Of a stretch of 64,000 bases of DNA, positions 16,390 to 59,604 are shown one piece after another. The position numbers and the translations under genes were made by a program. The DNA lies in NCBI GenBank assembly GCA_963726245.1, contig CAVSBT010000017.1:1-64000 (forward strand). Reading direction: 5' to 3'. Below the pieces are notes generated by a model. That model worked only from the letters and a program-made list of their open reading frames with translations. It did no database searches and was not told where the DNA came from. Source of the stretch: an uncultured Chloroflexia bacterium. GTDB taxonomy: Bacteria; Chloroflexota; Dehalococcoidia; DSTF01; JALHUB01. The first letter of the stretch is position 1. Every line of letters begins with the position of its first letter.

Positions 16390-16390
16390 A

Positions 16391-17818: not shown

Positions 17819-17820
17819 GG

Positions 17821-30209: not shown

Positions 30210-30218
30210 GGGGCACCC

Positions 30219-30983
30219 TCAGCCCTCTCTCTCCGACGCGGCCAGCCGGTTGATGACCGCCGCCAGGTAGCCGGCGCCGAAGCCGTTGTCGATGTTGACC
30301 ACCGCCACGCCGGCGGCGCAGGAGTTGAGCATCGTGAGCAGCGGCGCGACGCCCTGGAAGCTGGCGCCGTAGCCAACCGACGTGGGCACGGCGATGACGG
30401 GGACGGACACCAGGCCCGCCACCACGCTGGGCAGCGCCCCCTCCATGCCGGCCACGACCACCAGGGCCCGCGCCTCGCGGAGCTGCGGCAGGTAGTCGAG
30501 GAGGCGGTGGATGCCGGCCACGCCCACGTCGTAGACGCGCTCCACGGCGCAGCCCATGAGCTCGGCGGTGACCGCCGCCTCCTCGGCGACCGGCAGGTCG
30601 GACGTGCCGGCGCAGAGGATGGTGACGCCGGCCACGGGCTCTTGTGGCCGCCGGTCCAGCGTGATGCAGCGGGCCGTCTCGTGGTAGGCGGCGTCAGGGA
30701 GGTGCTCTTTGAGGGCGGCGAAGACGTCGGCGCCGACCCGCGTCACCAGGAGGCGGCCGGAGCGTTCCGCCAGCCGGGTCGCGATGGCGACCACCTGCTC
30801 CGGCGTCTTGCCCTGGCCCAGCACCACCTCCGGCAGGTGGTCGCGGAGGGCGCGGTGGTGGTCCAGCTTGGCGAAGCCCAGGTCCTCGTAGGGGAGGAGA
30901 CGCAGGTCCTCCAGCGCCTCCTCGACGGGGGTCGCGCCGCTGGCTACCGACTCCAGGAGCTGCCGAAGCCTCTCTGTATCGAT
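30219..30983 (-). CDS. larB: Nickel-pincer cofactor carboxylase/hydrolase LarB
   Basis: DLGFAKLDHHR, AGTSDLPVAEEA, DVGVAGIHR, AGMEGALPS, PTSVGYG, VNIDNGFGA; AAGGAGG followed by ATC at the expected start position. Confidence 0.92.
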   Translation of the reverse strand: MDTERLRQLLESVASGATPVEEALEDLRLLPYEDLGFAKLDHHRALRDHLPEVVLGQGKTPEQVVAIATRLAERSGRLLVTRVGADVFAALKEHLPDAAYHETARCITLDRRPQEPVAGVTILCAGTSDLPVAEEAAVTAELMGCAVERVYDVGVAGIHRLLDYLPQLREARALVVVAGMEGALPSVVAGLVSVPVIAVPTSVGYGASFQGVAPLLTMLNSCAAGVAVVNIDNGFGAGYLAAVINRLAASEREG

Positions 30984-31156: not shown

Positions 31157-32604
31157 ATGGACTACCGTCATGCCCTGCGCTTCCTGCTGAGCCTCTCCGA
31201 CTGGGAGCGCCTTGACCCGCCGGACAGGCGGGCCTGCCCGCGACAGGAGGCGCCCTGGCGGTGGTGCAGACCCGCGAGGCGGCCCACTTCAATCTCGAGC
31301 GCGTGCGCTCCCTGATGGCCCGCCTGGGCGACCCCCACCTCGGCCGGGGGACCATCCACGTCGCCGGGAGCAAGGGCAAGGGCAGCGTAGCGGCCATGAT
31401 CGCCTCCGTCCTGCGGGCGGCGGGCGTCCACGCCGGCCTCTACACCAGCCCTCACCTCCACCGCATGACGGAGCGCATCGCCGTCGATGGCGAGGCCATC
31501 AGCCCGGACGACTTCGGCCGCCTGACGGAGCCCCTTCGCGACGCCGTCGAGGCCGAGAACGCCGACGGCGCCCACGGCCAGATGACCACCTTCGAGGCCC
31601 TGACCGCCCTGGCCTTCCTCTACTTCCGAGAACAGGCCGTCCAGTGGCAGGTGCTGGAGGTGGGCCTGGGCGGGCGCCTGGACGCCACCAACGTGGTCGA
31701 GGAGAAGGCTGTCTGCGTCATCACGCCCATCAGCCTGGAGCACACCGCCGTCCTGGGGGATACTGTGGGCCAGATCGCAGCCGAGAAAGCGGCTATAATC
31801 ACCCCCGGGGCCACGGTGGTCATGGGCCTCCAGCGGGAGCCGGCAGCCGAGGTCGTACGCCGCGCCTGCGTCGAGCGTGGCGCCCACCTTGTGGAGGTGG
31901 CGCAGGCCTGCGCCCTCACGCGGCTGGGCTTCTCCTCGGAGGGCCAGGACTTCCGGCTGAGGACGCCTGGCGGCACGTACCGCCTGCGGCTGCCCCTGCT
32001 GGGCCGCCACCAGTTGGAGAACGCCGCCACGGCCGTCCTGGCCCTGGAGTGCCTGGCCGACCACGGCCTCGCGATCCCGGAGGCGGCCCTGCGCCGCGGC
32101 CTGCAGGAGGTGCGCTGGCCGGCGCGACTGGAGATTGTCCGCCGCCGGCCCCTGGTGGTCCTGGACGGCGCCCACAACGTCGATTCCGTGCGGCGCCTCT
32201 GCCAGGCCCTGGAGGAGTACGTGTCCTACTCGCGGGCCATCGTCGTGGCGGGCTTCTCCGCCGACAAAGACTTCGGCGCCATCGCCGCCGAGCTGGAGCG
32301 GCTGCCCCGCCTGGCCCAGGTGATCGCCACGCGCTCGCCTCACCCGCGGGCCGCGCCCGCAGACGCGGTGGCGGCGGCCTTCCGGGAGCGTGGGATCGAG
32401 ACGAGCCGGGAGGATGACGTGCCGGCAGCCCTGGAGGCCGCCCTGAGCCTGGCGTCGCCCGACGACATGGTCTGCGTCATGGGCTCTCTGTTCGTGGCCG
32501 CCGAGGCGCGGCGGCACATCCTGGGCCTGGAGACGGACCCGGCGTTGCCGCCGGCCGGTCTCGCCTCCGCCTCCGGCAGCAGGCGGGGCGCAGGGACGGC
32601 GTAG
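31157..32604 (+). CDS. folC: Bifunctional folylpolyglutamate/dihydrofolate synthase (frameshift near the 5' end)
   Basis: HVAGSKGKGS, YTSPHL, EVGLGGRLDATN, IAAEKAAII, DGAHN, GSLF; N-terminus MDYRHALRFL at 31157 is in another frame. Confidence 0.9.
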
Positions 32605-32638
32605 GGCCGGCTTCACGGGGAAGGAGGCGTCGAGAGCG

Positions 32639-33897
32639 ATGGGCCCCACCAACAGCCGCTGCAGGGTAGTGATCACCGGCATGGGCGCCATCACGCCGCT
32701 GGGCCTCACCGTAGAGGAGTTCTGGCAGGGCTGCGTCGAGGGGCGGTCCGGCGCCGGGCCCATCACGCTGATCGACTCGACGAACTACCCCGTCCAGATC
32801 GCCTGCGAGGTGAAGGGCTTCGATCCGCTCAACTACATGGACCGCCACGAGGCGCGTCGCATGGCCCGCTTCAGCCAGATGGCTGTTGCCGCCGCGCGCC
32901 AGGCTCTGGAGGACGCCGGCCTGCGGCTGGAGAAGGAGGACACGACCCGCATCGGCGTTCTCATCGGCAACGGCAACGGCGGTCTCCCGAACACGGAGGA
33001 GGCGGTCCGCACTCTCGTCGAGAAGGGGGGCATGCGCGTCGACCCCTTCTTCGTAGTCAAGATGCTCCCCAATATGGCAGCCTCCCAGATCGCCCTTCAG
33101 TTCGGAGTGAGCGGCTACAACAACACTGTCACCACGGCCTGCGCCGCCGGCACGCAGGCCATGGGCGACGCTGTCGAACGGCTGCGCCACGGCCGCGCGG
33201 AGGTGATGCTGGCAGGAGGGACCGAGGCCGGCATCTGTGAGCTGGGGCTCTCTGCCTTCTCAGTGATGCGAGTCCTCTCCACCCGAAACGACGAGCCGAC
33301 GAAGGCCAGCCGCCCCTTCGATGCGCAGCGCGACGGCTTCGTCTGCGGCGAGGGCGCCGCCGTCTTCGTGATGGAGACGCCTGGAGCACGCGCGGCGGCG
33401 CGACGCCCGCATCCTGGCCGAGCTGGCGGGCTACGGCGCCTCCGCCGACGCCTACCACCTGGTGGCGCCCTGTCCTGACGGCAACGGCGCTGCCCGCGCC
33501 ATGCGCGGGGCCCTCAAGGACGCCGGCGTCGCGCCCGAGGAGGTGGACTACATCAACGCGCACGGCACCTCGACAGTCCTGAACGACGCCGTGGAGACGC
33601 GGGCCATCAAAGCCGTCTTCGGCGAGCTTCGCCCATCGCGTGCCCGTCAGCTCCACCAAGTCCATGGTCGGTCACGGCCTGGCGGCCTCGGGCGCCATCG
33701 AGTCGGTGGCCTGCGTCAAGACCCTCCAGACCGGGATCATCCATCCCACCATCAACTACGAGTTCCCGGACCCGCAGTGCGACCTGGACTACGTCCCGAA
33801 CCAGGCCCGCACGGCCGATGTGCGGGTGATCCTGAAGAACAGCTTCGGGTTCGGAGGCCAGAACGCCTGCCTGGTCCTCCGGCGATTCGAGGAGTAG
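32639..33897 (+). CDS. fabF: Beta-ketoacyl-ACP synthase II (frameshifts near 33380 and 33630)
   Basis: [53 protein letters not shown]. Confidence 0.92.
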
Positions 33898-41490: not shown

Positions 41491-41780
41491 TATTCTCTCC
41501 TGCCCAGAAGCAGCCCCAACTGCGGGCAGGGAGGCCGGTCCTTCGGCGGGCAGGGCAGATGCCCTGTCTAGGGTCCTCTCCCTGGCGGCCGCCAGGCCCT
41601 CCTCCGCGCCGCACCCTGGCAGCCAGATTGTATCATCCGGCCACGAGGCCGGTCAAACGCGAGCCCTGGTGCCGCCGTAGGCGTCGAGCCGATTGACGCT
41701 GCCTGGGATGCCCCATAGAATTTGGGCTTGACGGCCCCGAACTGTCGGGGCCTATCCATACGAGCTGACAGGAGCAACCG

Positions 41781-44500
41781 ATGACCAGCGAGGCCGGCCC
41801 TCGCGGCGACATCCCCAAGGCCTACGACCCGCGGGCCGTGGAGGAGCGGCTGTACCGCTTCTGGGAGGAGCGCGGCCACTTCACGCCCCGCATAGACCCG
41901 CAGGGACGGCCCTTCACCATCATCATGCCGCCGCCCAACCTGACGGGCGAGCTGCACCTCGGCCACGCCCTGGAAGACACCATCACCGACATCCTCATCC
42001 GCTGGCACCGCATGCAGGGCGATCCCACCCTGTGGCTGCCCGGCATCGACCACGCCGCCATCGCTGTCCACGTGGTGGTGGAGAAGGAGCTGGCCAGGGA
42101 GGGCCTCACCCGCCACGAGATGGGCCGCGAACGCTTCCTGGAGCGCGTGTGGGACTTCGTGAACCGCAACCGCCGGCGCATCTTCGACCAGCACAAGCGG
42201 CTCGGCGCCTCGGCCGACTGGACCCGGGAGCGCTTCACGATGGATGAGGGCTCCCAGCGGGCCGTCCGCACCACCTTCCGCAGGCTCTACGACCAGGGCC
42301 TCATCTACCGGGGCGAGCGCATCATCAACTGGTGCCCGCGCTGCCAGACCGTCCTCTCGGACCTGGAGGTGGAGCACCACGAGCAGCAGGGCCACCTCTG
42401 GTACGTGCGCTATCCCCTTCTGAGCGGCGACGGCTCCCCGGAGGAGGGCCAGTACATCACCATCGCCACGACGCGGCCCGAGACGATAGTGGCCGACACC
42501 GGCATCGCCGTGCACCCCGGCGACGAGCGCTACGAGGCGCTGGTGGGGCGCCGCGCCCTCCTGCCCATCATCGGCCGTGCCATGCCCATCGTGGCCGACG
42601 AGGTGATCGACCCGGCGTTCGGCACCGGCGCCCTCAAGGTGACGCCCGGCCACGACCCCGTCGACTTCGACATCGGGCAGCGCCACGGCCTGCCCATCGT
42701 CAGCGCCATCGCACCGGATGCCACCATGAACGAGGAAGCCGGCCCCTACAAGGGCATGGACCGCGACGAGTGCCGGCGGGCCATCGTGCGCGACCTGGAG
42801 GAGCAGGGCTACCTGGTGAAGACGGAGCCCTACGTCCACTCCGTCGGCCACTGCTACCGCTGCGACAGCGTCGTGGAGCCGCTGGTCAGTCTCCAGTGGT
42901 TCATGCGCATGGAGCCCAGGCGGACTCGCCCGACCGGCCATCGAGGCGGTGAAGGACGGCCGCATCCGCTTCGTGCCGGAGCGCTTCGTGAAGGTCTACC
43001 TGAACTGGATGGAGAACATCCGCGACTGGTGCGTCTCGCGCCAGCTCTGGTGGGGCCATCGCATCCCCGTCTGGTACTGCGCCGACTGCGGCGAGCCAGA
43101 CGCTGCCCCTTCTGCCTGACGCGGGCGATCCCCTGGCGGACCCGACTAGCTGTCAGCACTGCGGGTCCGGCCGCATCGAACAGGACCCGGACACGCTCGA
43201 CACCTGGTTCTCTTCCGCCCTCTGGCCTCACTCCACGCTGGGCTGGCCTGACGACACCGAGGACCTTCGCTACTTCTATCCCACCTCCGTCATGCAGATG
43301 GGGTACGAGATCCTCTTCTTCTGGGGCGCCCGCATGATCATGACGGGGCTCTACAACATGGGCCAGGTCCCGTTTCACACCGTCTACATACATGGCCTCA
43401 TCCGCGACGACGAGGGTCGCAAGATGAGCAAGACGATAGGCAACGTGGTGGACCCGGTCGGGCTCGTCGAGCGCTACGGCGCCGATGCCCTGCGCTACGC
43501 CCTGGCCACGGGCTGCAGCCCCGGCAACGACATGCGCATCTCAGATCAGAAGCTGGAGGCCGGACGCAACTTCGCCAACAAGCTCTGGAACGCCGCCCGC
43601 TTCGTGCTCACCAACCTCGACGGCGCCGGGCTCGAGCGCCCTTCCCTCGACCGGCGGCAGGAGATGCCCCTGGAGGACCGCTGGATCATGTCGCGCCTCC
43701 AGCGGGTGGCGGCAGGCACCGGCCAGCTCCTGGAGCGCTTCGAGCTGGGCGAGGCGGGCCGGCAGCTCCACGACTTCCTCTGGGGCGAGTACTGCGACTG
43801 GTACGTGGAGATGGCCAAGGTGCGGCTACGGGAGGGCGACTCCTCGCCGCTGCCGGTGCTGGTTCACGTGCTGGACAGCAGCCTCCGCCTCCTGCACCCC
43901 TACATGCCCTACGTGACGGAGGAGATTCTGGCAGGCCCTGTCCGGCCACCTGCCGGACCGCGACGCCGAGGCCCTCATCGTGGCGCGCTTCCCGCAGCCC
44001 GACGCGGCCTGGTACGACGACGAGGCGGAGGCGCAGGCCGAGGCCGTCATCGAGGTGGTGCGCGCTATCCGCAACATCCGCTCCGAGCGACGGGTGGAGC
44101 CGGCCCGCTTCGTCGAGGCCCACGTCCAGGCGCCGCGCCTGCGCGCCGCCCTGGAGGCCAGCCGTCCCCTCATCGCCACGCTGGCCCGAGCCGAGCCCCT
44201 GCACATCGTCGGCGAGGAGGCGCGCCTGCCGAGCGAGAACGTGGCGACCGCCGTCCTGGCCGAGGGCCGCGTGGCCCTGCCCCTGGCCGGGCTCTTCGAC
44301 CTGGAGGCGGAGCGCAGCCGCCTCTCCCGCCAGATCAGCGAGCTGGAGGGCGAGGTGGGCCGCCTGGAGTCGCGTCTGGCCGACGAGCGCTTCCGCACCC
44401 GCGCGCCCGCCGCCGTCGTGCGACAGGAGGAGGAGCGGCTGGCCTCAGCCCGCTCCCGCCTGGAGGGCCTGCGCGCCCGCCTGAGCGAGCTGGGGAAGGC
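41781..44500 (+). CDS. valS: Valine--tRNA ligase (frameshifts near 42920, 43110 and 43930; stop codon not resolved)
   Basis: [56 protein letters not shown]-terminal coiled coil ending RLSELG near 44495. Confidence 0.93.
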
Positions 44501-44513
44501 CCGATGCCTCGAA

Positions 44514-47500
44514 TCAGCCAATAGGCCACTTCGGGATTGCCGCGTCGATCTCCGCCATGAGCCGCATGGTCTCATTGATGGCGACGACCATCTTCTCGTA
44601 GTGCTCGAGGTCCTCGTTGGAGAGCGTGCGGCGCGCGACGATCCTTCAGCCACTTCTGGCAGGGCTGGTAGCCGCCGACCCAGAACTCCCACACGCTCGC
44701 TGCGGTACGCCCTCGAAGTACTGTCCGCGAACGCCCGCCGTTGGGTTGCCCTTGTTGATGTAGACGCGGCCCGACCTCGACCGGCTTGCCGTCCTCCGGG
44801 CTTGGCTCGCCCGGCGCGACGTAGCGGGGGAAGCCGGGGTCCACGATGTTCGGGCCGGCGTACGGGGTAGCGGGTGATCGACTTCGCCAGCGTTGGCGAC
44901 TCCAACAGATGCAGCCCGACAAGCTCGCGCCCCTTCTCGACCAGTGTCCGGAAGAGGTCCAGGTTTGACGTGAGTGGGATACGCGGGAAGTCCGCCTTCA
45001 AGAACTGCGCGTAGCGGGTGCGATAGGTGGGCGAGTGCAGGACGGCGTAGATGTAGTGGAAGACGTCCTCCGGGCCGAAGGTGGCCTTGAGGTCGCCCTG
45101 TACCTTCTGAGACGAAGGTGAGACCGATACGTCCGGCGATGTCGTGCGACGAACTTCGGCTCGAAGTTGGGGCGGCGTCCATCCCTGCCCTCGGCCAGGG
45201 GGAGGCCGTAGGGAGCGCAGCCTGAGTGTCGACAGCCCCTTGGAGGCGGCGGGTACAAGTAGAGGGGGAAGACGAAACCATTGTTCAAGGTCTTCGGAGA
45301 CATGCAGCATGACTTCGGTGACTCGCCGGGTAACCTGACGCATGCCGGAATGTCTCGCCCTCGGTCAAACGAGTAGGTGACGAGTGCAAGGTTATTGCCC
45401 TGAAGCAGGTGTTGCATGACTCTCAGGCGGCGGTGCACAGCGACGTTCGAGTTGAAGACTGTCCATCGAACAATCAAGTGGCCGATAGAGAACCTGGCAG
45501 CAATTCGTTGCATCGCAGCCGCCGGATGCGCATTTCCTTCTTTGCGCGGCTCGTAGTTCCACTGAGACTGACGTGCAAAGTGCGAAGCAGCTTGACGGGC
45601 TTCGGCTTCGGTGCCCGTGGCGAGCAATGCCTCGCACTTTCGCGATTGCCTCTTCTCTAGTCCAACGAGATCGCAAACTGATCGTGAGTAGTGACGATTC
45701 CAGGCGCGGGGTCGCCGTTCTGGTTCATGACGCTTGTGGAATGCTACAGCCTTGTCAGTACTCCTCGAACAGGGACGTGTCCTGCGGGACGAAAAGATCC
45801 CGTCGGGGTTCCATGCGGGAAAGGTGGCCCACTTGGTAGGTCGATACGTCGGTATCGATGGAGCGCCAGCGTATTTGTTTTCACGCGAGCCCCACGAATC
45901 TCGCAGTGATGGACCGGCGGCGATATCCGCGCTTTGCCGGCTCCTTAACGAAGATGACCGATGGCCACCCCCTGCTGAATGTCGAAGACGTTCTGGTCTA
46001 GCTGAGCCGTCCGGGCAGCGCTCCTTCTTCTTGGAGTTGCCGTGCAGGTCGAGGACGTAGATGTCGTTGAAGGCGTTGCATCAACTGCTGGCGCATCCCT
46101 CGGAAAGTGGGGTTGTCGAGGTAGCTGTGGTTGGTGATGAAGGCCAGGATGCCGGCACCCGGTCCGCTCGATCCGCCACTGGCCCAAGCGGATGAACTTG
46201 ACGTAGTCGTCCTGGAGCCACTTCGGTTGCGCTGCCCAGCGGCTTGCCGTCCACTCGGTAGTAGTCCCGTCTGTAGTCCATCGATGCAAGGCTGACGCCG
46301 TCGATCCAGGTCGCCCTTGTTGGCCGAGTGGCCGGAGTAAGGCGGATTGCCCAGGACCACCATGATCGGCAGGTCGCGTTTGATCTCGGCGGCGGCGTTG
46401 GCCTCGTCGGCGATGAACCGGCGCGCCGAGCAGCAGGCTCGGCCTGCTTCGAGCGGCCTCCTCCAGAGTGTTCGTCAGGTAGACGCCCAGCCGGTCGTCG
46501 CCGGCGAAGTCGTAGGCCCAGTCCTTGCGCTGCCCCTCCGGCAGGTCCTGGCCCGCCAGTTGCATGCCGAGCTTGAGGTGCGCCACGGCGTAGGGGGCCA
46601 TCAGCAGCTCGAAGCCGAAGAGCCGCGGCAGGAGGTGCTCGCGCACGTAGCCCGACCACATACCCGCGTTGCCCTGCTTGCATGAACTGCGTCGCGGATC
46701 GAGGTCGACGACCGGCGTAGAGGAAGGTGCCGGTGCCGCAGGCCGGGTCGAGGATCAGGACGCGGGGGACGGTCTCCTGTCGCGTTCCTTGCCGTCCTCG
46801 TCGATGGCGCTCGTAGGTCACCGTGCCGGTGTCGGCCAGGCCGTCGGCGCAGGCCGAAGCGCGTCTTGAGCAGGTGGTCGACGGAGCGGACGATGTACGA
46901 CACGACGGGCTCGGGCGTGAAGTAGACGCCGCGCGCTCTCGCGCAGCTTGGGGTCGTAGGCGGCGAGAAAGGTCTCGTAGAAGTGGACGATCGGGTCCTC
47001 TCTGCCGCGTGCGCTTGCCGAACTCGGCGAGCACCGCCGTCCATGTCCGTGCTCGGTCGAGCAGCTGCGCCAGGTCGTCGACGAAGCCGACGATAGGGCT
47101 CATCGTCAAGGTCGGGGCCGGTGATCTGTGTCGAAGAGCTTGCGCAGGAACGGGTTGGTCTTCGGAATAGTCGCGGCGGCGTCCTGACGCCGGAAGCGGG
47201 CCGGGCCGTTGTGGTTCACCCGCGCTGCGAACAGCCCGTACGCTATCGTCTGCGAGAACATGTCCGCAAAGGCTTCGTGCAGGAGAGATCGGGGATGAGG
47301 ACTTCGGCGAATGCCTCGTGCAGGCCGCGCAACGTGGCCGACGCCGTCTTGTTCTGAAACGCTTGCACGAGTGATGTCGCGGATGAGGTGCGTTAGCCGT
47401 GCCAGGCGCTCGGCAAGCTCCTTGGGCTTAGAGATAGGCTGAGGCTTGTGGTCGAGGAAGCCGCGCAGGAGCGCCTCGGCCGCTTGGGCACCGTTCTTCT

Positions 47501-48699: not shown

Positions 48700-50055
48700 C
48701 TACCCCGCGCAGAAGATCGAGCAGTCGGGGCCGTGGATGCGCTCCGCCTCGGCGATGGCCTCCTCGACGGTCGCGGTGGGGGTGAAGCCGACGTGCCGCG
48801 GCACCGCCGGGTCCTCGGCGCCCGCCACGAAGACGCGACCGGCGTGTCGCAGGCGCTTCAGGGGGTGCGTGGCCAGGATGCCGTGGACGGGGTGGAAGGC
48901 GTAGCCCCGCCGGTACAGCTCGATGTAGTCACTTCGCGTGGCGAACTCGCCCAGGAAGCGCTCGCTGATCTCGTCGGGGTCCAGGGATTCGGTCAGCACC
49001 CGGTCCCACACCTCCGGGTACGAGGGGTGGTGCTCCATGTCCCACTGCTCGGGACAGGGCGTGGTGAGGATCACCGAGCACCCCGGCTTCCCCAGCGCCT
49101 CGATGTAGCCGCCCAGGTAGCCCAGGCCCGATGAGAGCAGCGTCAGGATGGGGTTCATTTTGGAGAAGGTGGCGTAGGGGCTCCAGTTGGGCACGCCGTA
49201 GATGATGACGTCGGCCCGCTCGGCGGCCGTCCGGCGCGGCGGGTTCTGGGCGGCCTGCACCTCCAGGGCGCGCGCCCGCGTCTCCGAGACGGTGCCGGCC
49301 CAGATGTGCGCTATCGTCATCGCGTCGGCCAGCAGCGTCTCCACCTTGAAGATGCGCCGACCGATGGACCTCTCCAGGTGCTCGCCCATCTCGTCGAAGA
49401 CGCCGTGCATGCGGTTGCCCCGCACCGACATCGACATGCCGTCCGGGGTGTGCGTCCAGCGGATGGAGCGCCAGGTGGAGAGCCCCACGCAGACCGACTT
49501 CCAGCCGCCGCTGAAGCCCAGCATGACGCCGGCGTTGACGTAGACCGTCAGGTCTGAGTCGGCGACCAGGCGGTGCACCTCCACGTCGTAGCCGCTGGCC
49601 GTCGTGCCGAGGTAGACCAGGTTCTCCGCGTCCTCGGCGTCGTGGCAGGCGAGCCGCGGCCCGAAGCGCTGGACCAGCTCCTCGCCCAGGATGCTCGACA
49701 GCTCTTCGCGCGTCCACTTGCGGTGGAGGGCGTTGGCGCAGACCAGGTTGACGTTCTCCTCCGGGACGCCGGCCTCCGCCAGCTCGGCGAGGATGGCCTC
49801 GATGACCAGGCGGCGGACCGGCCCGAAGGAGGGTATCGTCGGGTCGTCGAAGGCGATGAGCACGCGGGCGCCCGGGCGCACCAGCTCTCGGACGCGCGGC
49901 ATGCCCAGCGGCTTCGCCAGGGCGGCCAGGACGGCCTCCGACTGGTCCGCGACCGGCTGGAGGCCGCTGGCCAGCCCGCGAGAGGGGAAGCGCGTCCGGT
50001 CCGGCAGGCTGACCTCGACGGTGGTGTCGCCGTAGGGGAGGGTTCTCTTGATCAT
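48700..50055 (-). CDS. LarA-family (lactate racemase-like, DUF2088) protein
   Basis: LPYGD N-terminus, IAFDDPT, CANALHRK, CHDAED, GFSGGWKS. Confidence 0.75.
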   Translation of the reverse strand: MIKRTLPYGDTTVEVSLPDRTRFPSRGLASGLQPVADQSEAVLAALAKPLGMPRVRELVRPGARVLIAFDDPTIPSFGPVRRLVIEAILAELAEAGVPEENVNLVCANALHRKWTREELSSILGEELVQRFGPRLACHDAEDAENLVYLGTTASGYDVEVHRLVADSDLTVYVNAGVMLGFSGGWKSVCVGLSTWRSIRWTHTPDGMSMSVRGNRMHGVFDEMGEHLERSIGRRIFKVETLLADAMTIAHIWAGTVSETRARALEVQAAQNPPRRTAAERADVIIYGVPNWSPYATFSKMNPILTLLSSGLGYLGGYIEALGKPGCSVILTTPCPEQWDMEHHPSYPEVWDRVLTESLDPDEISERFLGEFATRSDYIELYRRGYAFHPVHGILATHPLKRLRHAGRVFVAGAEDPAVPRHVGFTPTATVEEAIAEAERIHGPDCSIFCAG

Positions 50056-50108
50056 CGTGCCCAACCCATATCAGACGGTACCACAGCGCGCAAGGGCCGG
50101 TTGGCATG

Positions 50109-50143: not shown

Positions 50144-50900
50144 TCCGACCCACAGCACCTGGCTCTTGAGGATCTCCCGGGGCATCGCCTCCAGGGCTGT
50201 CCTGACCCGGGCGGGCCACGGGCAGCAGCCGCTTCATCGTCCGGTCCTCCAGCCGCCGCAGGTAGGGGCAGCGCTTGAGGAAGGCGCCCAGCGTGTGGCG
50301 GTCCCCGCCCAGGAAGACGTAGTCCAGCTCCCGCTCGACAGGCCCGAAATGGGCCTGGACCGCCTCGCAGGCCTTGTCGAACATCTCCCGAATCTGCTTC
50401 TCGCGGATGCGGACGAATCGCGTCGCCGACTGGCCCCCGGCCTTGTGCCGGCCCTTAACGAACCTGTGGCCGCTCTTGGAATCGATCAGGCGCTCCCCCT
50501 CGAAGAGGCCGACGGCGTAGCGACCGAGCCGCAGCAGGACGACGCCCACGGTGCGCGGCTCGCTGAGCAGCGCGCGCAGAGGGGAGGTGTCGCATCCGGC
50601 CCGGCAGCCGGCATCGCGGAGGGGGAACGGAGGCAGCACCACCAGCCGGCGGGCGTCGCTCCAAAAGAAGACGGCGCCCGTCTCCGAGTCGAGTTCGCCG
50701 GCCAGGGCGTCGATCTCCTCGAGCCATGCGGCTTGACCGGGGGCAAGGTTGTCGTCGGGCGAGGGCCGTGCCGCCGGCGGCTGGCCCGCCTGCCGGCGAG
50801 GCAGGTACACGGTGAGCCAGTCGCCGGGGGAGGCCTCCAGGTCCGCCAGCAGCGCCTCCAGCCGGCGCCGCGTCAGCTGCTCCCGTCTTGTGATTTCCAC
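50140..50900 (-). CDS. Vms1/acVLRF1-type eRF1-like release factor / peptidyl-tRNA hydrolase (3' frameshift near 50200)
   Basis: GVVLLRLGRYAVG, FVKGRHKAGGQSATRF, FLGGDRHTL. Confidence 0.8.
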
Positions 50901-51139
50901 GACGGTTCCTCAGCCTCAGCATGCTCGCCTGCAAACACTGCCCATTGTGCCACACAAAGGCGGCGGAAGGGGGTGCAGCCGGGCCAGACAGATGCCGATG
51001 CTTTATCGGGAAAGCGTTAGGGGATTGAGGGCAAGGATGCATGGCTGCTCCCGATAGTGGCAAGAAGGCATTTAGGGTTTCATCAGCTAGTGCAGATGAT
51101 CAGGCGTCAGTTCGGGCCCCAGCGGGCGGAGGGAAGGCG

Positions 51140-51325
51140 ATGATCTGGCTGAAGGGCTGCCCCAAGTGTCATGGAGACATGCACTATGATCCCCTGGTTG
51201 AGGAGTACGTGTGCTTGCAGTGCGGTCTGGCGGTGGAGAGGCCGCCGGAAGAGTCCCTGTCGGAGGCTTTGACCGCCGGCGCGTCGCCGGTCGAGCCACT
51301 GCGCCTCGACCCGAAGAGCCCCTAG
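51140..51325 (+). CDS. Small zinc-ribbon protein
   Basis: MIWLKGCPKCHGDMHYDPLVEEYVCLQCG; GGAGGG RBS; terminator follows. Confidence 0.7.
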   Translation: MIWLKGCPKCHGDMHYDPLVEEYVCLQCGLAVERPPEESLSEALTAGASPVEPLRLDPKSP

Positions 51326-51518: not shown

Positions 51519-52599
51519 TTGGTAGCTGAGCAGTCACCCCACGTCGATCTCAGGGAGCTGGCCCGGCGATACGACGCCCGGCCCCTGGACGACCGCCCCT
51601 ACGAGCCGCTTCCCTTGGCTGACCAGGCTCTCGACCAGGACGAGGAGGCGCTGAAGGCGCGCCTGCGCCAGCTCTCCTACGAGCTGCCGGCCAGCGAGTG
51701 GCGGCCCATCGCCTGCACAGGGGAGGGCGGCGGGCCCGCCGACGCGCCGCGCCGCTTCATCGACGGCAGCGTCTTCTCCCGCAGCGTGGCCGCTCTCTCC
51801 GTCGAGGGCCGCCGGCGGCCGGCCGTGCTCGCCTGCCTGGGCGCCCTCGGCCTCCACCTGGAGGGAGGACGCCTCGTGCGGCCCCCGGAGGGCTTCCGGC
51901 TGCGCACCGTCCTCTGCCTGCTGAGCAACGGCGTGCCCCAGGAGGACCTGCGCGACGATGGCCGAGGGGCTGGCTTCGCTAGGGATTGATCTGGTCGTCT
52001 CGGAGACGGCGGAGCTGGCCGCCGACTTCGAGGTGCTGCGACGGCGCACCTGGGACCTGGCGAAGGAGCGCATGGAGGAGGCGGAGAAAGAGGTCCTCTT
52101 CGCGGCGCCGGACGTGCCCGCGGTGGTGGACGGCCTGCTGGAGCGGCGGCTGGTCACCGTCGCCTCGCAGGGCATGGCGGCGGTGGGCGTCGTGAAGCGC
52201 CAGATGCGGCGCTACCTGCCCGACTCCCACCTCAACCTGCTCTACGACCTCGCCGCGGGCCAGCGCACGCCCGCCTTCCTTCTCGAGACGGAGCACGCCA
52301 CCGTCGTGAGCTGGTACCTGCGCCTCTCGTCCGCCGACGGGCTGTCCCCCGGCTACGGCATCGTCCGGCTGGCCGTCCCCCAGGACTACCTGGAGCGGCG
52401 CTTCCCGGCGCCCGCAGAGCGCTGGAACCAGCTTTCGGCGCTCTCCGACTGGCTGCGGGCGCTGCGCTGTCGAGAGGGGAGCTACCCCCGGGCCGGCGTC
52501 TCCCTGGAACCGATCGTCCGCGTGGAGGACGAGCTGCACGCCCTGCTGCCGGACATCCGGCAGGTGGCGGCCCGGCTGCAACGGGCCCTGGGCATCTAA
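51519..52599 (+). CDS. nurA: NurA-like (RNase H-fold) nuclease (frameshift near 51955)
   Basis: RRFIDGS (first acidic motif), RMEEAE, VVDGLL, GVVK, G.RTPAF, SWYLRL, GIVRL, PIVRVEDEL; GGAGGG-TTG start. Confidence 0.7.
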
Positions 52600-52630
52600 G
52601 GTCCGCCCTACGGCGGACAGGAGGGTGGAG

Positions 52631-54532
52631 ATGGACGAGTCGAAAGACGACGGCCGCCACGACGGCGCCGGCTGAGCCCGCCGAAGCCGGCGAGACTCCC
52701 GCCGGTCTGCGTCCGATAGGCCGGGTGGCGGCGCCGCGGGGCTCCGAGGCGACGACAGAGGCTTTCCACTTCTGGGTCCCCGAGGACCGGCTGGTCGAGA
52801 AGACGCAGCTCGTCCACGTGGAGAGCCCCACCGGAGGCCGGGACGTGCACTTCTACGGCCTGGTGACGGAGGTCTTCCGCCGCTCCCGCCGCAACGACAT
52901 GCTGGAGGAGTCGGACCGCTTCGACGGCCGGCCCGAGGAGCAGGTGCCCCTGGAGAGCCGCGGCGTCACCTACGCCTCCGTCCGCGTGCTGGCCACGGAG
53001 CCGAGCGTCTTCACGCCGCCGCGCGAGGAGAGCGTGGTCTACCCGGCGGGCGAGCCGGAGGCCCGCATCGCCTACGGCGTGGGCGACATGGAGAAGCCCG
53101 TGGTCGTCGGCCTGGTGCGCAACGGCGGCGAGGCCGACGCCGGGCCCGCCTACGTGGACCTGGACTACCTGCTCGGCGCCAAGGGTGGGCACCTGAACGT
53201 GGCCGGCATCGCCGGCGTGGGCACCAAGTCCAGCTTCCTGACCATCGCCCTCAGCCAGGTGCTGCGCTACTGCCGCCGCCACGCCGAGGAGCACCCGGAG
53301 GACCCGGAGAAGCCGCAGGTGCGCGCCGTCATCCTCAACGTCAAGGGCTTTGACCTCTTCTGGCTCGACCACTGGTCGAGGGCCTTCAGCGAGGAGGACC
53401 GGCGGATGTGGGAGGCCATGGGCTGGGGCGAGCCCTCGCCCATGGACGTGCTCGCCTTCTTCGCCCCTCAGCAGCCCGGCAGCGACGAGCTGGCGGCGCC
53501 CGTGGGACGGAGCGGCGTCCGCCCCTATAGCTGGTCGCTGGAGGACGTCATCCGCGACAACCTCTTCACCTACCTCTTCAGCGACAGCGACCGCGAGGAC
53601 GACAACTTCGCCCTCCTCCTGGCCGACATGGAGCGGCTCCTGGCCCGCGAGTGGCGCCAGAACGACGGCACGCCCATGCGCGAGCTGCGCCGCGACGCCC
53701 CGGCCCGCACCTTCCAGGAGCTCTTCGACTGGTTCGAGCACGGCCTGGCCCGCGGCGAGGGCCGCGAAGGCGATGAGCCCCCGCGCCGGTCGGACCTCAC
53801 CTTCGAACGGCTCCAGACGGTGCACCACGCGGGCACGCTGCGCCGCTTCTACCGCCGCCTGCGGCGCATCGTCTACGAGAGCGCCGGCATCTTCCGCATG
53901 GAGGGCGGCGGCAGCCATCCCCTGGACATCAGCGCCCTGGAGTCGGGTCGGCCCATCGTGGTGGACATCCAGAGCCTGCCCGACCGTCACCTCCAGCGCT
54001 TCGTCGTGGCGGCGCTCCTGAAGCAGGCCGTGGAGCAGCAGACCGGCGCCCGGCGCCCTGCCCGGCATGCACTACCTCTTCGTCCTCGACGAGCTCAACC
54101 GCTTCGCCCCCAAGGGTCACACCGACCCCATCACCCAGCTCATCGAGACGGTGGCGGCGGAGCTGCGCTCGCGGGGGGTGATCCTCCTGGGGGCGCAGCA
54201 GCAGGCCTCGCTGGTCTCGCCGCGGGTGGTGGAGAACGCCTCGGTGCGCGTCCTGGGGCGCACCGGCGGCCACGAGCTGCGACAGGACGTCTTCAGCTTC
54301 CTGCCGGAGGAGCTGCGCGACTACGTGGAGCAGCTCGGCGCCAGCGACAAGGTGCTGCACCTGCCCAGCTTCCGCCAGCCCATGCACGTGCGCGTTCCCC
54401 GGCCGCCCTGGGCCATGCGCAGGCAGGAAGCCTCCACCGAGCCGCCGGAGCTTCTGCGGGAGCGGGGCGCGGTCGCCGTGCCGCAGCCCCGTCCGCCGCC
54501 TGCCGTCGCGTCCCTACGACGAGCTGCCCTGA
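52631..54532 (+). CDS. herA: HerA/FtsK-superfamily ATPase with N-terminal HAS barrel (frameshifts near 52660, 54055 and 54500)
   Basis: IGRV..FHFW..FYGLVTEV (HAS barrel); Walker A variant GHLNVAGIAGVGTKSSF; ILNVKG; Walker B LFVLDELNRFAP; RSRGVILLGAQQ; VVENAS. Confidence 0.8.
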
Positions 54533-54533
54533 G

Positions 54534-55801
54534 ATGCGCCTGCTACATACGAGCGACTGGCACCTGGGCGCCCGCCTCGGCAACCAGGACCGCCTGCCCG
54601 ACCAGCTCGAGCGGCTGGAGGAGATCTGCCGCTACCTGGACGAGAACGAGGTGGACGTGCTCCTGGTGGCGGGCGACGTCTTCGACGAGCACCGCTCGGA
54701 GGCGCTGGCCCGCATCATCGCCCGACTGGCCCGGCTGCTCAAGCCCCGCATCGAGGCCGGCATGTGGGCGGTGTTCATCGCCGGCAACCACGACCGCGAG
54801 CACGTCTTCCCTCTCATCCGGGGCCTTCAAGACCTGCTGACGGCCGAAAGCAGCCTGCCTGCCGGACAGGCGGGCCCGCGGGTCGTCTTCGCCGAGCGGC
54901 CGGCGCTGGTGCCGGTCACCGCCCGGTCGGGCGAGCAGGTGCAGCTCATGCTCCTGCCCTACCCAACGCCCACCCGCTACGAGCTGCCCGACGAACGGCT
55001 GGCCCAGCCCTGACGCCAAGCGGCAGAAGCTGGCCGATGCCCTGCGGGAGCGCATCGGCGGGCTAGCCCAGGAGGCCCGCCTGACGCCCGGCGTGCCGGT
55101 CGTCCTCTGCGGCCACTTCCTGGTGCGCGGCGTGCGCGAGGGCTTCTACCAGCTCAGCGAGCAGGAGGACGTGCCCGTCGAGCCCGCCGACCTGCCCTCG
55201 TACGCCTACATCGCCCTGGGCCACATCCACAAGCCGCAGACGGTGGGCGCGCCCCACATCCGCTACTGCGGCAGCCTGGAGCGCATGGACCGCGGCGAGG
55301 CGGACGACCGCAAGATGGTCCTGCTCGCCGACGTGGGCCGCTCGGGCCTGCGCGACGTGGTGGAGCTGCCCCTCAACGCTACCCCCTTCGCCCACGTGAC
55401 GGCAGCCAGTGAAGACGACCTGGAGCGGGCGGCGAGGGAGCTGTCGGAGCCGGAACGGACGCTGGTCTCGCTGACCCTGGACCTCTCGCGCCGACGAGCC
55501 GGTGGGGCCCCTCCTGGCCCGCGCCCGCGCCCTCTTCCCGCGGCTCTGGGCGCCGCCCGAGATCCGGCTCGCGGAGACGGCCGCTCCCCCGGCGCCGCGC
55601 GCCATCGACCGGCGCGACGTGGCGGGCACGGTGCGGTCATATCTGCAGGAGGCTCTGGCGGGCGACGCCGACCGCGACGAGCTGCTGCGGCTGGCCGAGG
55701 AGCTGCTCGCCGACCTGCCTGTCGGACAGGCGGGGCCCATAGGGGCGGTTCGCGAACCGCCCCTACCCAGCCGAGCCGAGACCGTCCGGGAGACGCCATG
55801 A
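54534..55801 (+). CDS. sbcD: Mre11/SbcD-family metallophosphoesterase nuclease (frameshifts near 55005 and 55495)
   Basis: MRLLHTSDWHLG, VAGDVFD, IAGNHD, LCGH, YIALGHIHKPQ, YCGSLERMDRGE. Confidence 0.88.
54854..54874. repeat. 21-nt palindromic element in frame within sbcD
   Basis: cctgcctgccggacaggcggg, read as LPAGQAG; near-identical copy at 55714-55734. Confidence 0.7.
55714..55766. repeat. 21-nt palindrome plus 28-nt REP-like palindrome inside the sbcD 3' coding region
   Basis: cctgcctgtcggacaggcggg (LPVGQAG) then ataggggcggttcgcgaaccgcccctac (IGAVREPPL). Confidence 0.7.
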
Positions 55802-58800
55802 TCCCCGTCCGGGTGCAGGTCCGCAACTTCCTCACCTACGGCGAGGCCGACGACGGCGGCCCCATCGAGTTCGACTTCGAGGGGTCGCGGCTCTGGAGCA
55901 TCTCCGGCAACAACGGCTCCGGCAAGAGCGCCGTCTTCGACGCCATCACCTACGCCCTCTTCGGCCGCCACCGGGGCGGCGCCACCGGCGACGGCCGCCT
56001 GATCCGCAAAGGCGCCCGCCAGTGCGAGGCCACCTTCGAGTTCCAGGCCAACGGCCACCTCTACCGCGTCCGGCGCACGGTGGCCCGGCGGCACGGGAAA
56101 GCGACAGCAGGAGGCCAAGGAACGCCAGGCCGCCCGCTTCGACCCCGACAGCGGCGAGTGGGTGCCGGTGCCGGCCACCGACTCCGATGCCGCCCTGGGG
56201 CGCTGGGTCCAGGAGCTGCTGGGCCTCGGCTACGACACCTTCGTCACCTCTGTCCTCCTGCGCCAGGGAGAGAGCGACCGCTTCATCACCGCCGGCAACG
56301 CCGAGCGCTTCGACATCCTCCGGCAACTGCTGGGCCTCCAGGCCTACCAGCAGCTCGAGGAGCGCGCCCGTGCCCGCGCCCGCGAGGCCCGAGCGTCCGC
56401 CGAGGCCCTGGACCGGCACCTGGCCGCCACCCCGGCCTTCGACCCGGCCGACCTGGAAGCGGCGGAGGCCGCGCTGGCGGCGTCGGAGGCGGGCCTGCGC
56501 GACTCTCAAGCCGCCTGCACGCAGGCCCAGGCCGTCTTGAGCGACGCCCGCGCCTTCGCCGAGCTGGCCGCGCACATCGAGGAGTGCCGGCGCCGGCTGG
56601 CGGAGGTCGAGAGCCTCCTGGCCGACGCCGAAGGCATCCGAGCCCGCTACCAGGAGTGGCAGGACATCGAGGCGGCCGTCCCCGCCCTGGAGGGGGCGCT
56701 CCGGGAGCTGCGGGCGGCCGCCGTCGCCGAGGCAGAGGCGGAGGAGGCGCGACGGGCCGCCCTCGCCGTCGACCTGGGGGCGCTGGAGGAGGCGGCGCAG
56801 CTCGCGAACGCGGCGGCGGAGGACGCCGAGCGGGCCGTCGGCGTCGCTGACGAGAGCCTGAACGCCTGCCGCCAATCGCTGGCGGCGCTCCAGCCCGCCC
56901 TGCGCGGCATCGACGAGCTGGCGCAGGCCCGCGGCCAGGCCGAACGGCTGAGGGCCGACATCGATGGGCTGTCGCGCGAGCTGGAGTCGATGCCCGCCGT
57001 GCGCGAGCAGCACGAGCGGCTGTCCGCCATCGCCCGGGGATTGCCCGCCCTCGAGGCGCTGGTCGCCGCCCGCAGGGGCCTGGAAGAGGCGGAGGCCGCC
57101 GCCGCCGAGGCCGGCTCTCTGGACGGCCGGCGGCAGGAGGTGGAGCGCCTCGCCCACGAGGTGAGCGCCGCCGAGACGCGCACCCGCCAGGCGGAGCGAC
57201 GCCTTCGGGCGGCCGACCAGCAGCTGGCGCGGGCGGAGGCAGCGCTCGAGCAGGCCCGCGGGCAGCTAGCCGCCCGCCAGGAGGCCCGCGACGAGGCCGT
57301 GTGCTCCCGCTGCGGACAGCCCGTCGACCCGGAGCACATCGCGCGGGAGCTGCGGGACGCCGAGGCGGCGGTCGCTGAGGCCGGCGAGCGCGTCGCCGAA
57401 GCCCAGGCCGGCCACGAGCAGGCGCACGGCGAGGAGGAGGCGGCTCGAGAGGCGCTGGCGGCGTCGCAGGCGGCGGAGCAGGAGGCCCGTGACCGCCTGC
57501 GAGAGGCGGAGCGGCGCGCCGAGCAGGCGGCCCAGGCCCGCTCGCGCCTCGACGAAGCCGTGGCCGCGGCCTCGGACCTGCCGGAAGAGCTGCGGCGCGT
57601 CGCCGCCGGGGCACCGCCGGCGGAGGCCGAACGGGCGCTGGCCGATGCCCGCGCGCAGGCGTCGGCGCTCCCCCAGGCCACCGCCGATCTGAACCGGCTG
57701 CTGGGGCTGAAGGGGCAGGCAGAGGCCCTGGGCAAGGCCCTGCAAGAGCAGCAGGAGCGCATCGCCGAGCTGGCGGCGCGCTATCCGCCCCAGGCGGAGC
57801 AGCAGGTCCGGGCCGAAGCCGAGCGGCTGCGTACCGAGGAGCCCCGGCTCGAGGCCGCGGCCGCGGCAGGCGCGCCGGGGCTGGAAGGAGGCCCGCGACT
57901 CGGCGGAGGCGGCCCGAGGACGGCTGGAGGAAGGCCGCCTGCGCCGCCAGCAGCTCGAGGGCGACGCCGCCCGCCTCGGGCAGGGGGCTTCGGGTTTGCG
58001 CTCCCAGGCCGCCGTCCGCCTCCAGCCGGTTCGTGAGGACTGGCGCACGCGGGCGCTGGCGCTGGACGGCGCGCTCCTGACGGAGCTGCTGCGCCGCCGC
58101 GACGAGCTGGCCGGCGTCGACGAGCAGCACCAGGCGCTGGCGCGGGCCGACGAAGAGCGGCGCGAGCAGGAGGCCCGCCGTCGTGAGCTGGACCGCAGCG
58201 TGAGCCGCATCCCCCAGGAGCACCGCCTGCCCGTCGTCGAGGCGGAGCGGGCCCTGGAGGAGAGGACGGCCGACATGCAGGCCCGCCAGTCGGAGCGCGA
58301 TGAGGCCTTTCGTCGCGTCCAGGCGCTGGAGCACGCCCGCGAGCAACGACAGCGGTTCGAGGGCGCCCTGCGGGAGGCGCAGCGGCTGCGCGTCCGCTTC
58401 GGGCGGCTGGCCGAGCTACTGGGTCGCGGCGGCCTCCAGGCCCGCCTGGTGGACGAGGCCCTGGAGGGCATCACATACCTGGCCAACGAGACCCTGGCCC
58501 GCGTCTCCGGCGGGCAGCTCCGGCTTCAGTTGTCGCGGGAGAGCCGCCGGGCGGCTGGCCAGGCCGACGCCCGAAGCAACGAGGAGATCGTAATCCGTGC
58601 CCGCGACCTCGCCTCCGCCGACGAGCCGCTGGACACGCAGTTCCTCTCGGGCAGCCAGAGGTTCCGCACCTCCGTGGCCATCGCCGCCGCCATCGGCCAG
58701 TACGTGGCCGGCTCTCAGGGGAGCGCCATCCGCTCGCTGATCATCGACGAGGGCTTCGGGAGCCTGGATGCGCAGGGCAGACAGGAGATGGTCGAGGAGC

Positions 58801-58937
58801 TGCGGAACCTGTCGCAGTTCATGGACCGCATCATCGTCGTCAGCCACCAGGAGGACTTCCAGGACCGCACGCTCTTCCCGACGGGCTTCATCCTGCGCAA
58901 GGAGGGCCAGCGCAGCACCGTCGAGCGGTTCGTGTAG
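55798..58937 (+). CDS. sbcC: Rad50/SbcC SMC-family ATPase (frameshifts near 56110 and 57870)
   Basis: MIPVRVQVRNFLTY, Walker A SGNNGSGKSAVFDAITYALFG, Q-loop LLRQGE, zinc hook CSRCGQP, signature LSGSQRFR, Walker B LIIDEGFGSLD, VVSH; ATGA overlap with the sbcD stop. Confidence 0.9.
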
Positions 58938-58995: not shown

Positions 58996-59023
58996 TTGAC
59001 AAAGCTCACAAGGGAAGTAGAAT
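58996..59023 (+). promoter_or_regulatory. Near-consensus sigma70 promoter
   Basis: TTGACA-N16-TAGAAT in an AT-rich intergenic patch. Confidence 0.6.
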
Positions 59024-59528: not shown

Positions 59529-59604
59529 TGGCGCGCCCGGAGGGATTCGAACCCCCGACCCTCGGTTCCGAAGACCGATGCTCTATCCGCTGAGCTACGA
59601 GCGC
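59529..59604 (-). tRNA. tRNA-Arg(TCG)
   Basis: Reverse complement gcgctcgtagctcagcggatagagca-tcggt-ctTCGga-accga-gggtcgggggttcgaatccctccgggcgcgcca. Confidence 0.93.

Follow-up and report, generated by a model that had tools for sequence, protein, structure and literature searches.

A nurA-herA-sbcD-sbcC operon in a Dehalococcoidia-like bacterium, most likely encoding a two-stage DNA-end-processing machine

In thermophilic archaea, the genes of the NurA, HerA, Mre11 and Rad50 families are clustered (PMC3326311, PMC2288612), and archaeal Mre11 was reported to interact with HerA (PMC2288612). In bacteria, Blesa et al. (2017) noted sbcD and sbcC homologues downstream of herA in Oceanithermus profundus and read this nurA-hepA(herA)-sbcD-sbcC layout as an archaeal-like architecture and function in break repair (PMC5448004). 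Yang et al. (2023) solved the HerA of Deinococcus radiodurans (drHerA), modelled the drNurA-HerA complex, described the role of NurA-HerA as controversial and its distribution as narrow, and gave the identity between archaeal and bacterial NurA-HerA as below 20% (PMC9960219). Here, we analysed positions 1 to 64,000 of contig CAVSBT010000017.1 (assembly GCA_963726245.1) from an uncultured Chloroflexia bacterium placed in the Dehalococcoidia; this whole stretch of 64,000 nucleotides is called the window. Its region 51519-58937 is a genuine four-gene operon, nurA-herA-sbcD-sbcC, which adds to an already known layout and is not a new kind. The initial annotation of the window had been cautious about novelty, and the Oceanithermus report of 2017 justifies that caution. 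Our literature search found only this Oceanithermus remark and no paper on the wide distribution of the cluster or on the seven-gene form described below.

The operon was assembled by joining frame-hopping stop-to-stop pieces by position, in a window with a G+C content of about 69%. All four genes are co-directional:

51519-52599, + strand: nurA, bacterial-type NurA nuclease, about 359 aa
52600-52630, + strand: nurA-herA spacer, a 31-bp gap with a 21-bp palindromic insert and GGAGG before the herA ATG
52631-54532, + strand: herA, bacterial-type HerA hexameric translocase, about 632 aa; its C-terminus (...YDELP*) lies in frame 2 and ends at 54532
54534-55801, + strand: sbcD, Mre11-family nuclease, about 421 aa
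55798-58937, + strand: sbcC, Rad50/SbcC-family ATPase with a CxxC zinc hook, 1045 aa

A single base (54533) separates herA from sbcD, and sbcD and sbcC overlap by ATGA at 55798-55801. These coordinates and junctions confirm the annotated arrangement of four packed co-directional genes, separated by gaps of 31 bp and 1 bp and joined at the last junction by the ATGA overlap, and the four identities (NurA, HerA, SbcD and SbcC) were upheld by sequence, profile and fold evidence. Because the packing is so tight, the four genes are probably translated jointly. No sigma-70-like promoter was found 5' of nurA and no terminator-like site 3' of sbcC, and Rfam gave no RNA family within the operon region.

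In the deposited sequence, the four genes carry eight frameshifts. The frame breaks were located by DNA alignment (blastn) to the closest relative, locus L001 (88% identity), and a three-way DNA alignment with L001 and a further relative, L007, was concordant:

nurA: frame 0 to about 51955, +1 insertion near 51956, frame 1 from 51958
herA: +1 insertions near 52667, 54054 and 54483
sbcD: +1 insertions near 54999 and 55490
sbcC: +1 insertions near 56090 and 57867

Every frameshift is an additional G or C present in the window only, and the three-way alignment showed no window-only 1-bp deletion inside the four genes. The frameshift-aware alignment that had been proposed as a check resulted in these eight insertions and otherwise open reading. 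The read-through products, with X at the breaks, are stop-free and comprise 359, 632, 421 and 1045 residues; the corresponding genes of L001 are four intact open reading frames (ORFs) of 356, 635, 409 and 1045 aa, packed alike. In the ortholog alignments, the window keeps 21/21 family-invariant residues of NurA, 197/198 of HerA and 22/22 of SbcD, and all six SbcC motifs sought occur in the read-through. Protein identity is 89-93% to L001 (NurA, SbcD) and to protein P0002 (HerA).

Similar breaks occur elsewhere in the window. The valS gene (41769-44867) lies in three frames, covering NCBIfam profile positions 2-360, 423-680 and 679-859, and fabF (32447-33894) is likewise divided (profile positions 2-241, 241-323 and 324-407). 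Together, the two genes have four or more breaks over some 4 kb, a density resembling the eight per 7.4 kb of the operon. The window as a whole thus carries single-base indel errors, at about one per kb in places; other stretches have long, unbroken ORFs, reaching 1184 aa at 1804-5355. From these comparisons, the eight frameshifts are most likely assembly errors rather than decay, because they are of a single kind and essential genes (valS and fabF) show a like break density, and the four genes would then be intact in the cell. The larC gene (29017-30742, - strand), which adjoins larB, is also found in two frames, with LarC1 and LarC2 parts. A natural LarC1/LarC2 split is known, so larC was not used as frameshift evidence; it may represent the natural two-part form or a further assembly error. 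As had been annotated, the frameshifts hide the operon from ORF callers: the public protein P0001 (762 aa) is a chimera in which the N-terminal part of HerA runs into that of SbcD.

The nurA and herA pieces of the window matched no Pfam (even at E 10), NCBIfam or PADLOC model, and the intact NurA and HerA of L001 gave the same result. Pfam HAS-barrel and DUF87 matched neither the HerA pieces of the window nor the intact HerA of L001. Since these libraries miss both proteins, a PDB sequence search, ortholog profiles and a fold search were needed. Of the profiles suggested by the initial annotation, Metallophos and AAA_23 were matched by the window proteins, and NurA, HAS-barrel and DUF87 were not.

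In the phmmer search, the frame-0 piece of HerA matched chain B of the Deinococcus structure 7f6d with an E-value of 3.9e-22 (query 21-454 to chain 20-473), a homology that spans the HAS-barrel and RecA-like domains. The only PDB matches of this piece were 7f6d, 7wrw and 7wrx, the D. radiodurans NurA-HerA entries, which are of the same bacterial protein type. Among 8000 candidates scored, 371 homologs were obtained at E<=1e-5, the best being 93% identical; the full-length homologs among the matches listed were nearly all about 590-650 aa long, and none had a precomputed Pfam domain. The P-loop reads GIAGVGTKS in the window and GISGVATKTS in Deinococcus HerA, with GxxGVxTK[ST] in common. Walker A residues T198, K199 and S200 and Walker B residues D486 and E487 are invariant in the HerA alignment (A1) and kept in the window. 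Their drHerA counterparts are K175/T176 and D487/E488, and K175 and T176 bind nucleotide and Mg (PMC9960219). The HerA identity had thus been annotated correctly, whereas the Walker A, described at that time as a variant, is the family norm, since it is invariant in A1 and similar in Deinococcus HerA, with its nucleotide-binding K175/T176. Judged by its sequence, the second gene encodes a bacterial-type HerA translocase.

For NurA, the second window piece reached 7f6d_H with an E-value of only 0.047. A profile of 27 orthologs matched 7f6d_H at 9.5e-10 and 1zup_A (Thermotoga TM1739) at 0.0032, and Pfam NurA (PF09376) matched nine of the 27 orthologs (best E 7.2e-6). The AlphaFold2 (AF2) model of the L001 NurA, which is 91% identical to the window read-through, had a predicted local distance difference test score (pLDDT) of 89.1 and a predicted template modelling score (pTM) of 0.87, and it has the RNase H-like NurA fold. 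Foldseek placed 7f6d_G at the top (E 1e-14, TM-scores 0.60/0.64), followed by 1zup_A (1.7e-11), 2ygk_A (5.2e-7), TdpAB 8wfd chain G (2e-6) and Thermococcus HerA-NurA; archaeal NurA is among the matches (2ygk, 9x1l). The lack of a NurA fold in the first ORF had been named as grounds for giving up the proposal, and the modelled L001 ortholog has the fold. D79, K223 and R321, family-invariant and kept in the window, align with drNurA D53, K201 and R309, using a +20 offset for the deposited chain 7f6d_H and with the D53 column taken from a weak first alignment stretch. Changing these drNurA residues abolishes nuclease activity. The first gene, by ortholog profile and model, encodes a bacterial-type NurA nuclease. 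We take sbcCD not to adjoin nurA-herA in Deinococcus, which sets that organism apart from the window.

The SbcD N-terminal piece of the window matched TIGR00619 (sbcd) at 4.9e-23, and the intact L001 SbcD matched it at 4.1e-31 (108.7 bits, above the 77.65-bit cut-off), whereas archaeal Mre11 models matched L001 SbcD at 1e-11 or weaker. Pfam Metallophos also matches SbcD. Phosphoesterase motifs I-V are complete, with D8, H10, D48, N85, H86, H187, H223 and H225 invariant and kept in the window. SbcC matches Pfam AAA_23 and SbcC_Walker_B. The intact L001 SbcC matched TIGR00618 (sbcc) at E 1.8e-44 and remained far below every cut-off of the Rad50 equivalog models. Since its 152 bits compare with a TIGR00618 cut-off of 478.5 bits, SbcC is a divergent member of the superfamily. 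As in the rest of the family, the ATPase head is split and of the ABC type, and a long coiled coil and a CxxC zinc hook are present, with these motifs in the 1045-aa window protein:

Walker A, GNNGSGKS, at residue 37
Q-loop, LLRQG, at residue 153
Zinc hook, CSRCG, at residue 502
Signature, LSGSQ, at residue 949
Walker B, LIIDEG, at residue 980
H-loop, SHQ, at residue 1015

The initial annotation had considered an archaeal-style resection machine. The clustering of the four families agrees with this description; the proteins do not, as their best matches are bacterial-type (7f6d, and TIGR00619 for SbcD). Archaeal-type proteins in the archaeal order were not found. The archaeal order is herA-mre11-rad50-nurA, unlike nurA-herA-sbcD-sbcC, and the archaeal cluster was reportedly described by Constantinesco in 2004. 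The archaeal cluster also differs in that the locus studied here has no thermophily link.

To survey the distribution, 185,579 species genomes were scanned with two exact peptide patterns. The scan resulted in 153 relatives, a lower bound because of those exact patterns, and 79 loci (L001 to L079) were kept. Limnoglobus roseus, Zavarzinella formosa, Calothrix sp. PCC 7103 and Thermogemmatispora tikiterensis are carriers whose genomes are complete or nearly so. Additionally, a profile was compared with 1.84 billion cluster representatives, giving 1165, 720 and 238 matches at E<=1e-3, 1e-10 and 1e-30, respectively. Gene order in the loci was determined by tblastn of window pieces. From 73 loci with at least 1.2 kb upstream, 67 had nurA before herA; sbcD followed herA in 63 of the 69 loci with at least 1.5 kb downstream, and sbcC in 56 of the 62 with at least 3.5 kb downstream. 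All four genes in the order of the window were recovered in 51/58 loci whose flanks measured 1.2 kb or more upstream and 3.5 kb or more downstream, with 11 phylum labels. The neighbourhood check set out in the initial annotation thus bore out the conservation of the four genes. O. profundus likewise has sbcD and sbcC homologues downstream of herA; it belongs to another phylum (Thermales), was compared here by its published description and is treated there as a single case (PMC5448004). Flanking synteny was common only to L001 and L007, so the four genes form the conserved unit. An sbcC start overlapping the sbcD stop by 4 nt was available in 45/63 loci, a count that favours small gaps because the start nearest the upstream stop was taken. 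Six loci (L045, L046, L054, L057, L070 and L074) had herA without nearby sbcCD, which indicates that the linkage can be lost; nurA was also undetected in L046 and L070. In some Dehalococcoidia, genes lie between herA and sbcD, namely an IS200-like gene (L060) and a DUF559 gene (L058), and L060 has an ion-channel gene between nurA and herA. These inserted genes were rejected as partners because they differ from locus to locus.

The HerA tree, built by a quick search, comprised 74 loci and the window; the incomplete or split L009, L017, L027, L068 and L072 were omitted. The window grouped with two Dehalococcoidia bins, L001 and L007. On the tree, phylum labels clustered, with 16 changes against a possible minimum of 10 and a shuffled mean of 40.9. 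Some placements across phyla may reflect transfer or binning error.

A direct contact between the two halves of the operon was predicted by co-folding HerA 27-632 of P0002 (alignment A1) with SbcD 1-392 of L001 (alignment A3). The contact score was 0.70, against 0.00 for the best of three controls; the three runs agreed in at least 88% of contacts, and partner pLDDT was at least 81. The contact mark is reached by 116/157 solved complexes and by 2/215 mismatched pairs, rough counts in this setting, where our own alignments were supplied. In the model, the interface is formed by the loop that follows the P-loop helix of HerA (215-229), by HerA 343-347, 434-438 and 473-479, and by SbcD 130, 167-182, 189-193, 205-217, 229-235 and 262-264. 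The HerA loop reads HPEDPEKPQ, with PSDPxR as the sister-clade form; each clade conserves its own version, and drHerA has a Gly/Ser-rich stretch instead. The model suggests that HerA binds SbcD directly, which would allow hand-over between two stages, and the predicted interface is a mutable target. We know of no solved HerA-Mre11 complex. The interface segments were rejected as a marker of sbcCD linkage, as linked and unlinked loci did not differ. HerA proteins of the family (L001-L079; window 54440-54532) end in a short acidic-hydrophobic tail (...YDELP, ...DDDIATY, ...EFDDP), which recalls the protein-docking tip of SSB; it was also rejected as a linkage marker, since like tails occur in loci with and without sbcCD.

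The sister HerA clade (L013-L079) has an extended, seven-gene form: sigma-70-like, middle protein, Peptidase_M78, nurA, herA, sbcD and sbcC. Examples are given by L018:6649-8779 and L074:7021-8905. Pfam searches of flanking ORFs (sets of 30 and 138 proteins, with five very long ORFs dropped from the latter) showed that the Peptidase_M78 (IrrE-like) gene abuts nurA and that a protein with sigma-70 regions 2/4 is often encoded two genes further up. The trio was counted with our own hidden Markov models (HMMs) of the peptidase, middle and sigma-like proteins, which were run on all loci and on the window in six frames. The peptidase lay directly 5' of nurA in 40/42 sister-clade loci, against 2/19 (L010 and L012) in the two subclades of the window, and all three genes were present in 35/40 and 0/16 loci, respectively. 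The six frames of the window gave no match to any of the three. One sister-clade peptidase matched CapP (7t5t_A) with an E-value of 0.0011, and the L012 peptidase carries a fused HTH_3 domain. The middle protein (about 190-250 aa) showed no detectable helix-turn-helix, and its best E-value in the PDB profile search was 0.027; its AF2 model had a pLDDT of 67.2 and a pTM of 0.36, with 0 Foldseek matches at E<=0.001.

The neighbour survey took the nearest ORFs, up to four upstream and two downstream, and found defence- or mobile-type Pfam families at 11 of the 18 sister-clade loci examined, a raw count without a background rate for random genes. The following neighbours, at these loci and additionally at L054, are those whose families we take to be defence genes (such as DUF3375, DUF2397, TGT/QueC and Multi_ubiq):

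L034:16153-18205 and L042:15804-17902: DUF3375 with DUF4194/MksE
L031:16155-19059 and L008:5116-7858: DUF2397 with DUF2398 (L008 belongs to the window's own clade)
L025:15584-19115 and L038:16197-18785: Cas3
L054:2589-7315: cas genes
L055:3429-6689 and 16350-18129: TGT with or without QueC, and a second, Pfam-recognised NurA and DUF87 pair
L018: TGT with or without QueC
L031: NB-ARC
L076:3909-6489: Multi_ubiq with ThiF

Integrase and transposase genes were also found among the sister-clade neighbours. In the window's own clade, such neighbours occur at L008 and L012 and were absent from L002, L004, L010, L040 and L041; the close relatives L002 and L004 have housekeeping flanks. The operon of the window is flanked by acVLRF1, LarA (LarA-like gene, 48703-50070), TrmO and DapB; other parts of the window contain purine genes and genes for ribosomal proteins.

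All four proteins have their catalytic motifs in place. From sequence and from analogy with related systems, the operon most likely encodes one two-stage DNA-end-processing machine of a Dehalococcoidia-like bacterium, capturing DNA ends and resecting or degrading from them. As expected from the families, SbcCD would bind a DNA end and open or trim blocked or hairpin ends; the HerA hexamer would then pump the duplex into the NurA dimer, which would digest mainly the 5' strand and leave a 3' tail for RecA. The predicted HerA-SbcD contact would provide direct hand-over between the stages. Translocation-dependent 5'-strand digestion was measured for drNurA-HerA (PMC9960219). We favour, at about even odds, the resection of the cell's own broken DNA as the main role in this genome, and a second role in degrading foreign linear DNA, as with RecBCD, is possible by analogy.

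Two rival explanations concern the existence of a working joint machine. The operon could be a decaying relic with genuine frameshifts and no production of the four proteins, as the presence of eight of them within 7.4 kb and a record that itself carries them, down to the chimeric ORF of the public set, would suggest. However, no stop codon or other lesion remains once the single bases are skipped, the invariant residues and the identity to relatives are retained, all eight events are alike, and two essential genes of this window, valS and fabF, are likewise broken across three frames each; a relic is therefore barely credible. Alternatively, the genes could merely adjoin one another, with no function in common, NurA-HerA and SbcCD working separately as in Deinococcus. 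The six loci that keep herA without nearby sbcCD agree with this, as do the unrelated genes inserted between herA and sbcD (L060, L058) and between nurA and herA (L060). Yet the order is kept over 11 phylum labels while the flanks change, the junctions are tight, and the predicted HerA-SbcD contact passed its controls, and we consider separate working highly improbable.

A further question, already posed by the initial annotation, is whether the machine serves repair or immunity. Repair is favoured by the housekeeping neighbours in the window, L002 and L004 and by the clustering of HerA by phylum. Several points weigh against repair as the main role. The family is sparse, with at least 153 relatives among the species genomes scanned and 238 clusters at E<=1e-30; the CapP/IrrE-like peptidase gene adjoins nurA in nearly all sister-clade loci, and defence- or mobile-type families lie around most of those examined. 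In addition, deletion of nurA-herA in D. radiodurans improved tolerance to mitomycin C and far-UV (PMC9960219), and herA mutants of Thermus thermophilus showed more natural competence and more DNA donation (PMC5448004), a phenotype that fits a DNA-interference role. In an immune nuclease, SbcCD would detect incoming phage or plasmid DNA by its ends, free or hairpin, and HerA-NurA would then degrade that DNA processively, the window form having lost the damage-sensing regulators. CapP with CapH is described as triggered by single-stranded DNA (ssDNA) and as switching on immune operons after DNA damage (10.64898/2026.05.16.725639), and in 24 cyclic-oligonucleotide-based antiphage signalling systems (CBASS) this pair is accompanied by a sigma-70-family factor (10.1101/2022.04.27.489752). 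The sister clade has, directly 5' of nurA, a gene for a Peptidase_M78 of the kind known from these operons and from IrrE/DdrO of Deinococcus, a sigma-70-like gene and a third gene, and one of its peptidases matches CapP. The cas genes at L054, the defence reading of the neighbour families, which is our assumption, the resemblance of the NurA model to chain G of the defence system TdpAB and the two knock-out phenotypes, unlike a loss of repair, also point to immunity.

The sister-clade operon differs from the CBASS operons in being a nuclease-helicase set. Against immunity, the repair genes that Deinococcus uses ordinarily are likewise under the control of an IrrE-type protease. PADLOC-DB 2.0.0 gave no match for NurA or HerA in the window pieces and in intact L001 and L018, save a weak mad8 match at 2.6e-5. 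SbcC matched generic SMC-like models (LmuB, mad3 and JetC), and SbcD matched only weakly (PDC-S10 and others). As in TdpAB, SIR2-HerA, DUF4297-HerA, Lamassu (LmuB) and Wadjet (JetC), a ring or SMC-like ATPase stands beside a nuclease; unlike these systems, the window has no SIR2, DUF4297 or LmuA-type partner, and its zinc-hook SbcC of 1045 aa scores better as sbcc than as LmuB (6.7e-33). Furthermore, the window, L001, L007, L002, L004, L040 and L041 have neither regulator nor defence neighbour, the neighbour count is raw, and HerA labels cluster by phylum. The sister-clade regulators and neighbours make immunity a serious reading for the family; as the explanation of the operon in the window, we regard it as possible, though short of probable.

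A broader proposal is that NurA-HerA and SbcCD form one coupled, widespread, RecBCD-like innate immune nuclease, in which HerA docks SbcD through the loop after the P-loop helix, which is mostly switched on by a CapP-like ssDNA-sensing peptidase via a dedicated sigma factor, and of which the window would hold a stripped-down, constitutive four-gene form. We consider this proposal rather doubtful; if true, it would settle the disputed role of bacterial NurA-HerA. The analysis adds a subfamily spanning the 11 phylum labels that is almost always in one operon with SbcCD, and a larger (sister) clade whose operon lies behind a DNA-damage-type regulator, often among defence genes. The four-gene and seven-gene units are cloneable tests of repair versus immunity. 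Standard pipelines miss the operon because Pfam, NCBIfam and PADLOC miss NurA and HerA and because single-base errors fuse or split the genes.

Palindromic inserts were observed in and near the operon. The insert of the nurA-herA spacer accounts for 21 of the 31 gap bases (about 52598-52620) and is missing in L001 and L007. Within sbcD lie a 21-bp palindromic insert that keeps the frame (about 54853-54873) and, at 55718-55734, a hairpin related to it. The short palindromic inserts in coding sequence, some 21 bp each, were mapped to 50789-50805 (acVLRF1, minus strand), 54858-54874 and 55718-55734 (both sbcD); they are missing in L001 and L007, and a further short palindromic insert lies at 31216-31232. 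The motif CCTGYCGGNNAGGCRGG has 3 copies in the window, against 0.00 expected from shuffles, and 0 in the 79 related loci. The 21-bp spacer hairpin differs from the sbcD/acVLRF1 hairpin. Possible origins of the inserts are a hairpin insertion element peculiar to this genome, template switching and artefacts of the assembly. ARAGORN called a 95-base tRNA-Cys at 52519-52613 (- strand), a span that takes in the nurA end and the hairpin insert; it is absent from the Rfam results at the gathering threshold and is probably a false call.

Upstream of the operon, 190 bp 5' of nurA and on the same strand, lies a 94-aa ORF (51041-51325, + strand) with a CxxC...CxxC zinc ribbon. It matched Zn_Ribbon_TF weakly (2.6e-4, under the cut-off) and was kept only in L001 (69%) and L007 (73% over 41 aa). 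Downstream, the sole promoter-like site of the region lies just past sbcC at 58996-59023 (+ strand), with TTGACA, 16 nt and TAGAAT (11/12 consensus matches). Nothing that this site might drive was assigned to a gene or RNA family; the segment 58979-59406 is kept in L001 at 79%, and a tRNA-Arg lies at 59529-59604 on the opposite strand to the site. Directly 3' of sbcC, L001 has a 358-aa nitronate monooxygenase-like gene (PF03060, 6.3e-57; L001:8753-9829), which is missing in the window.

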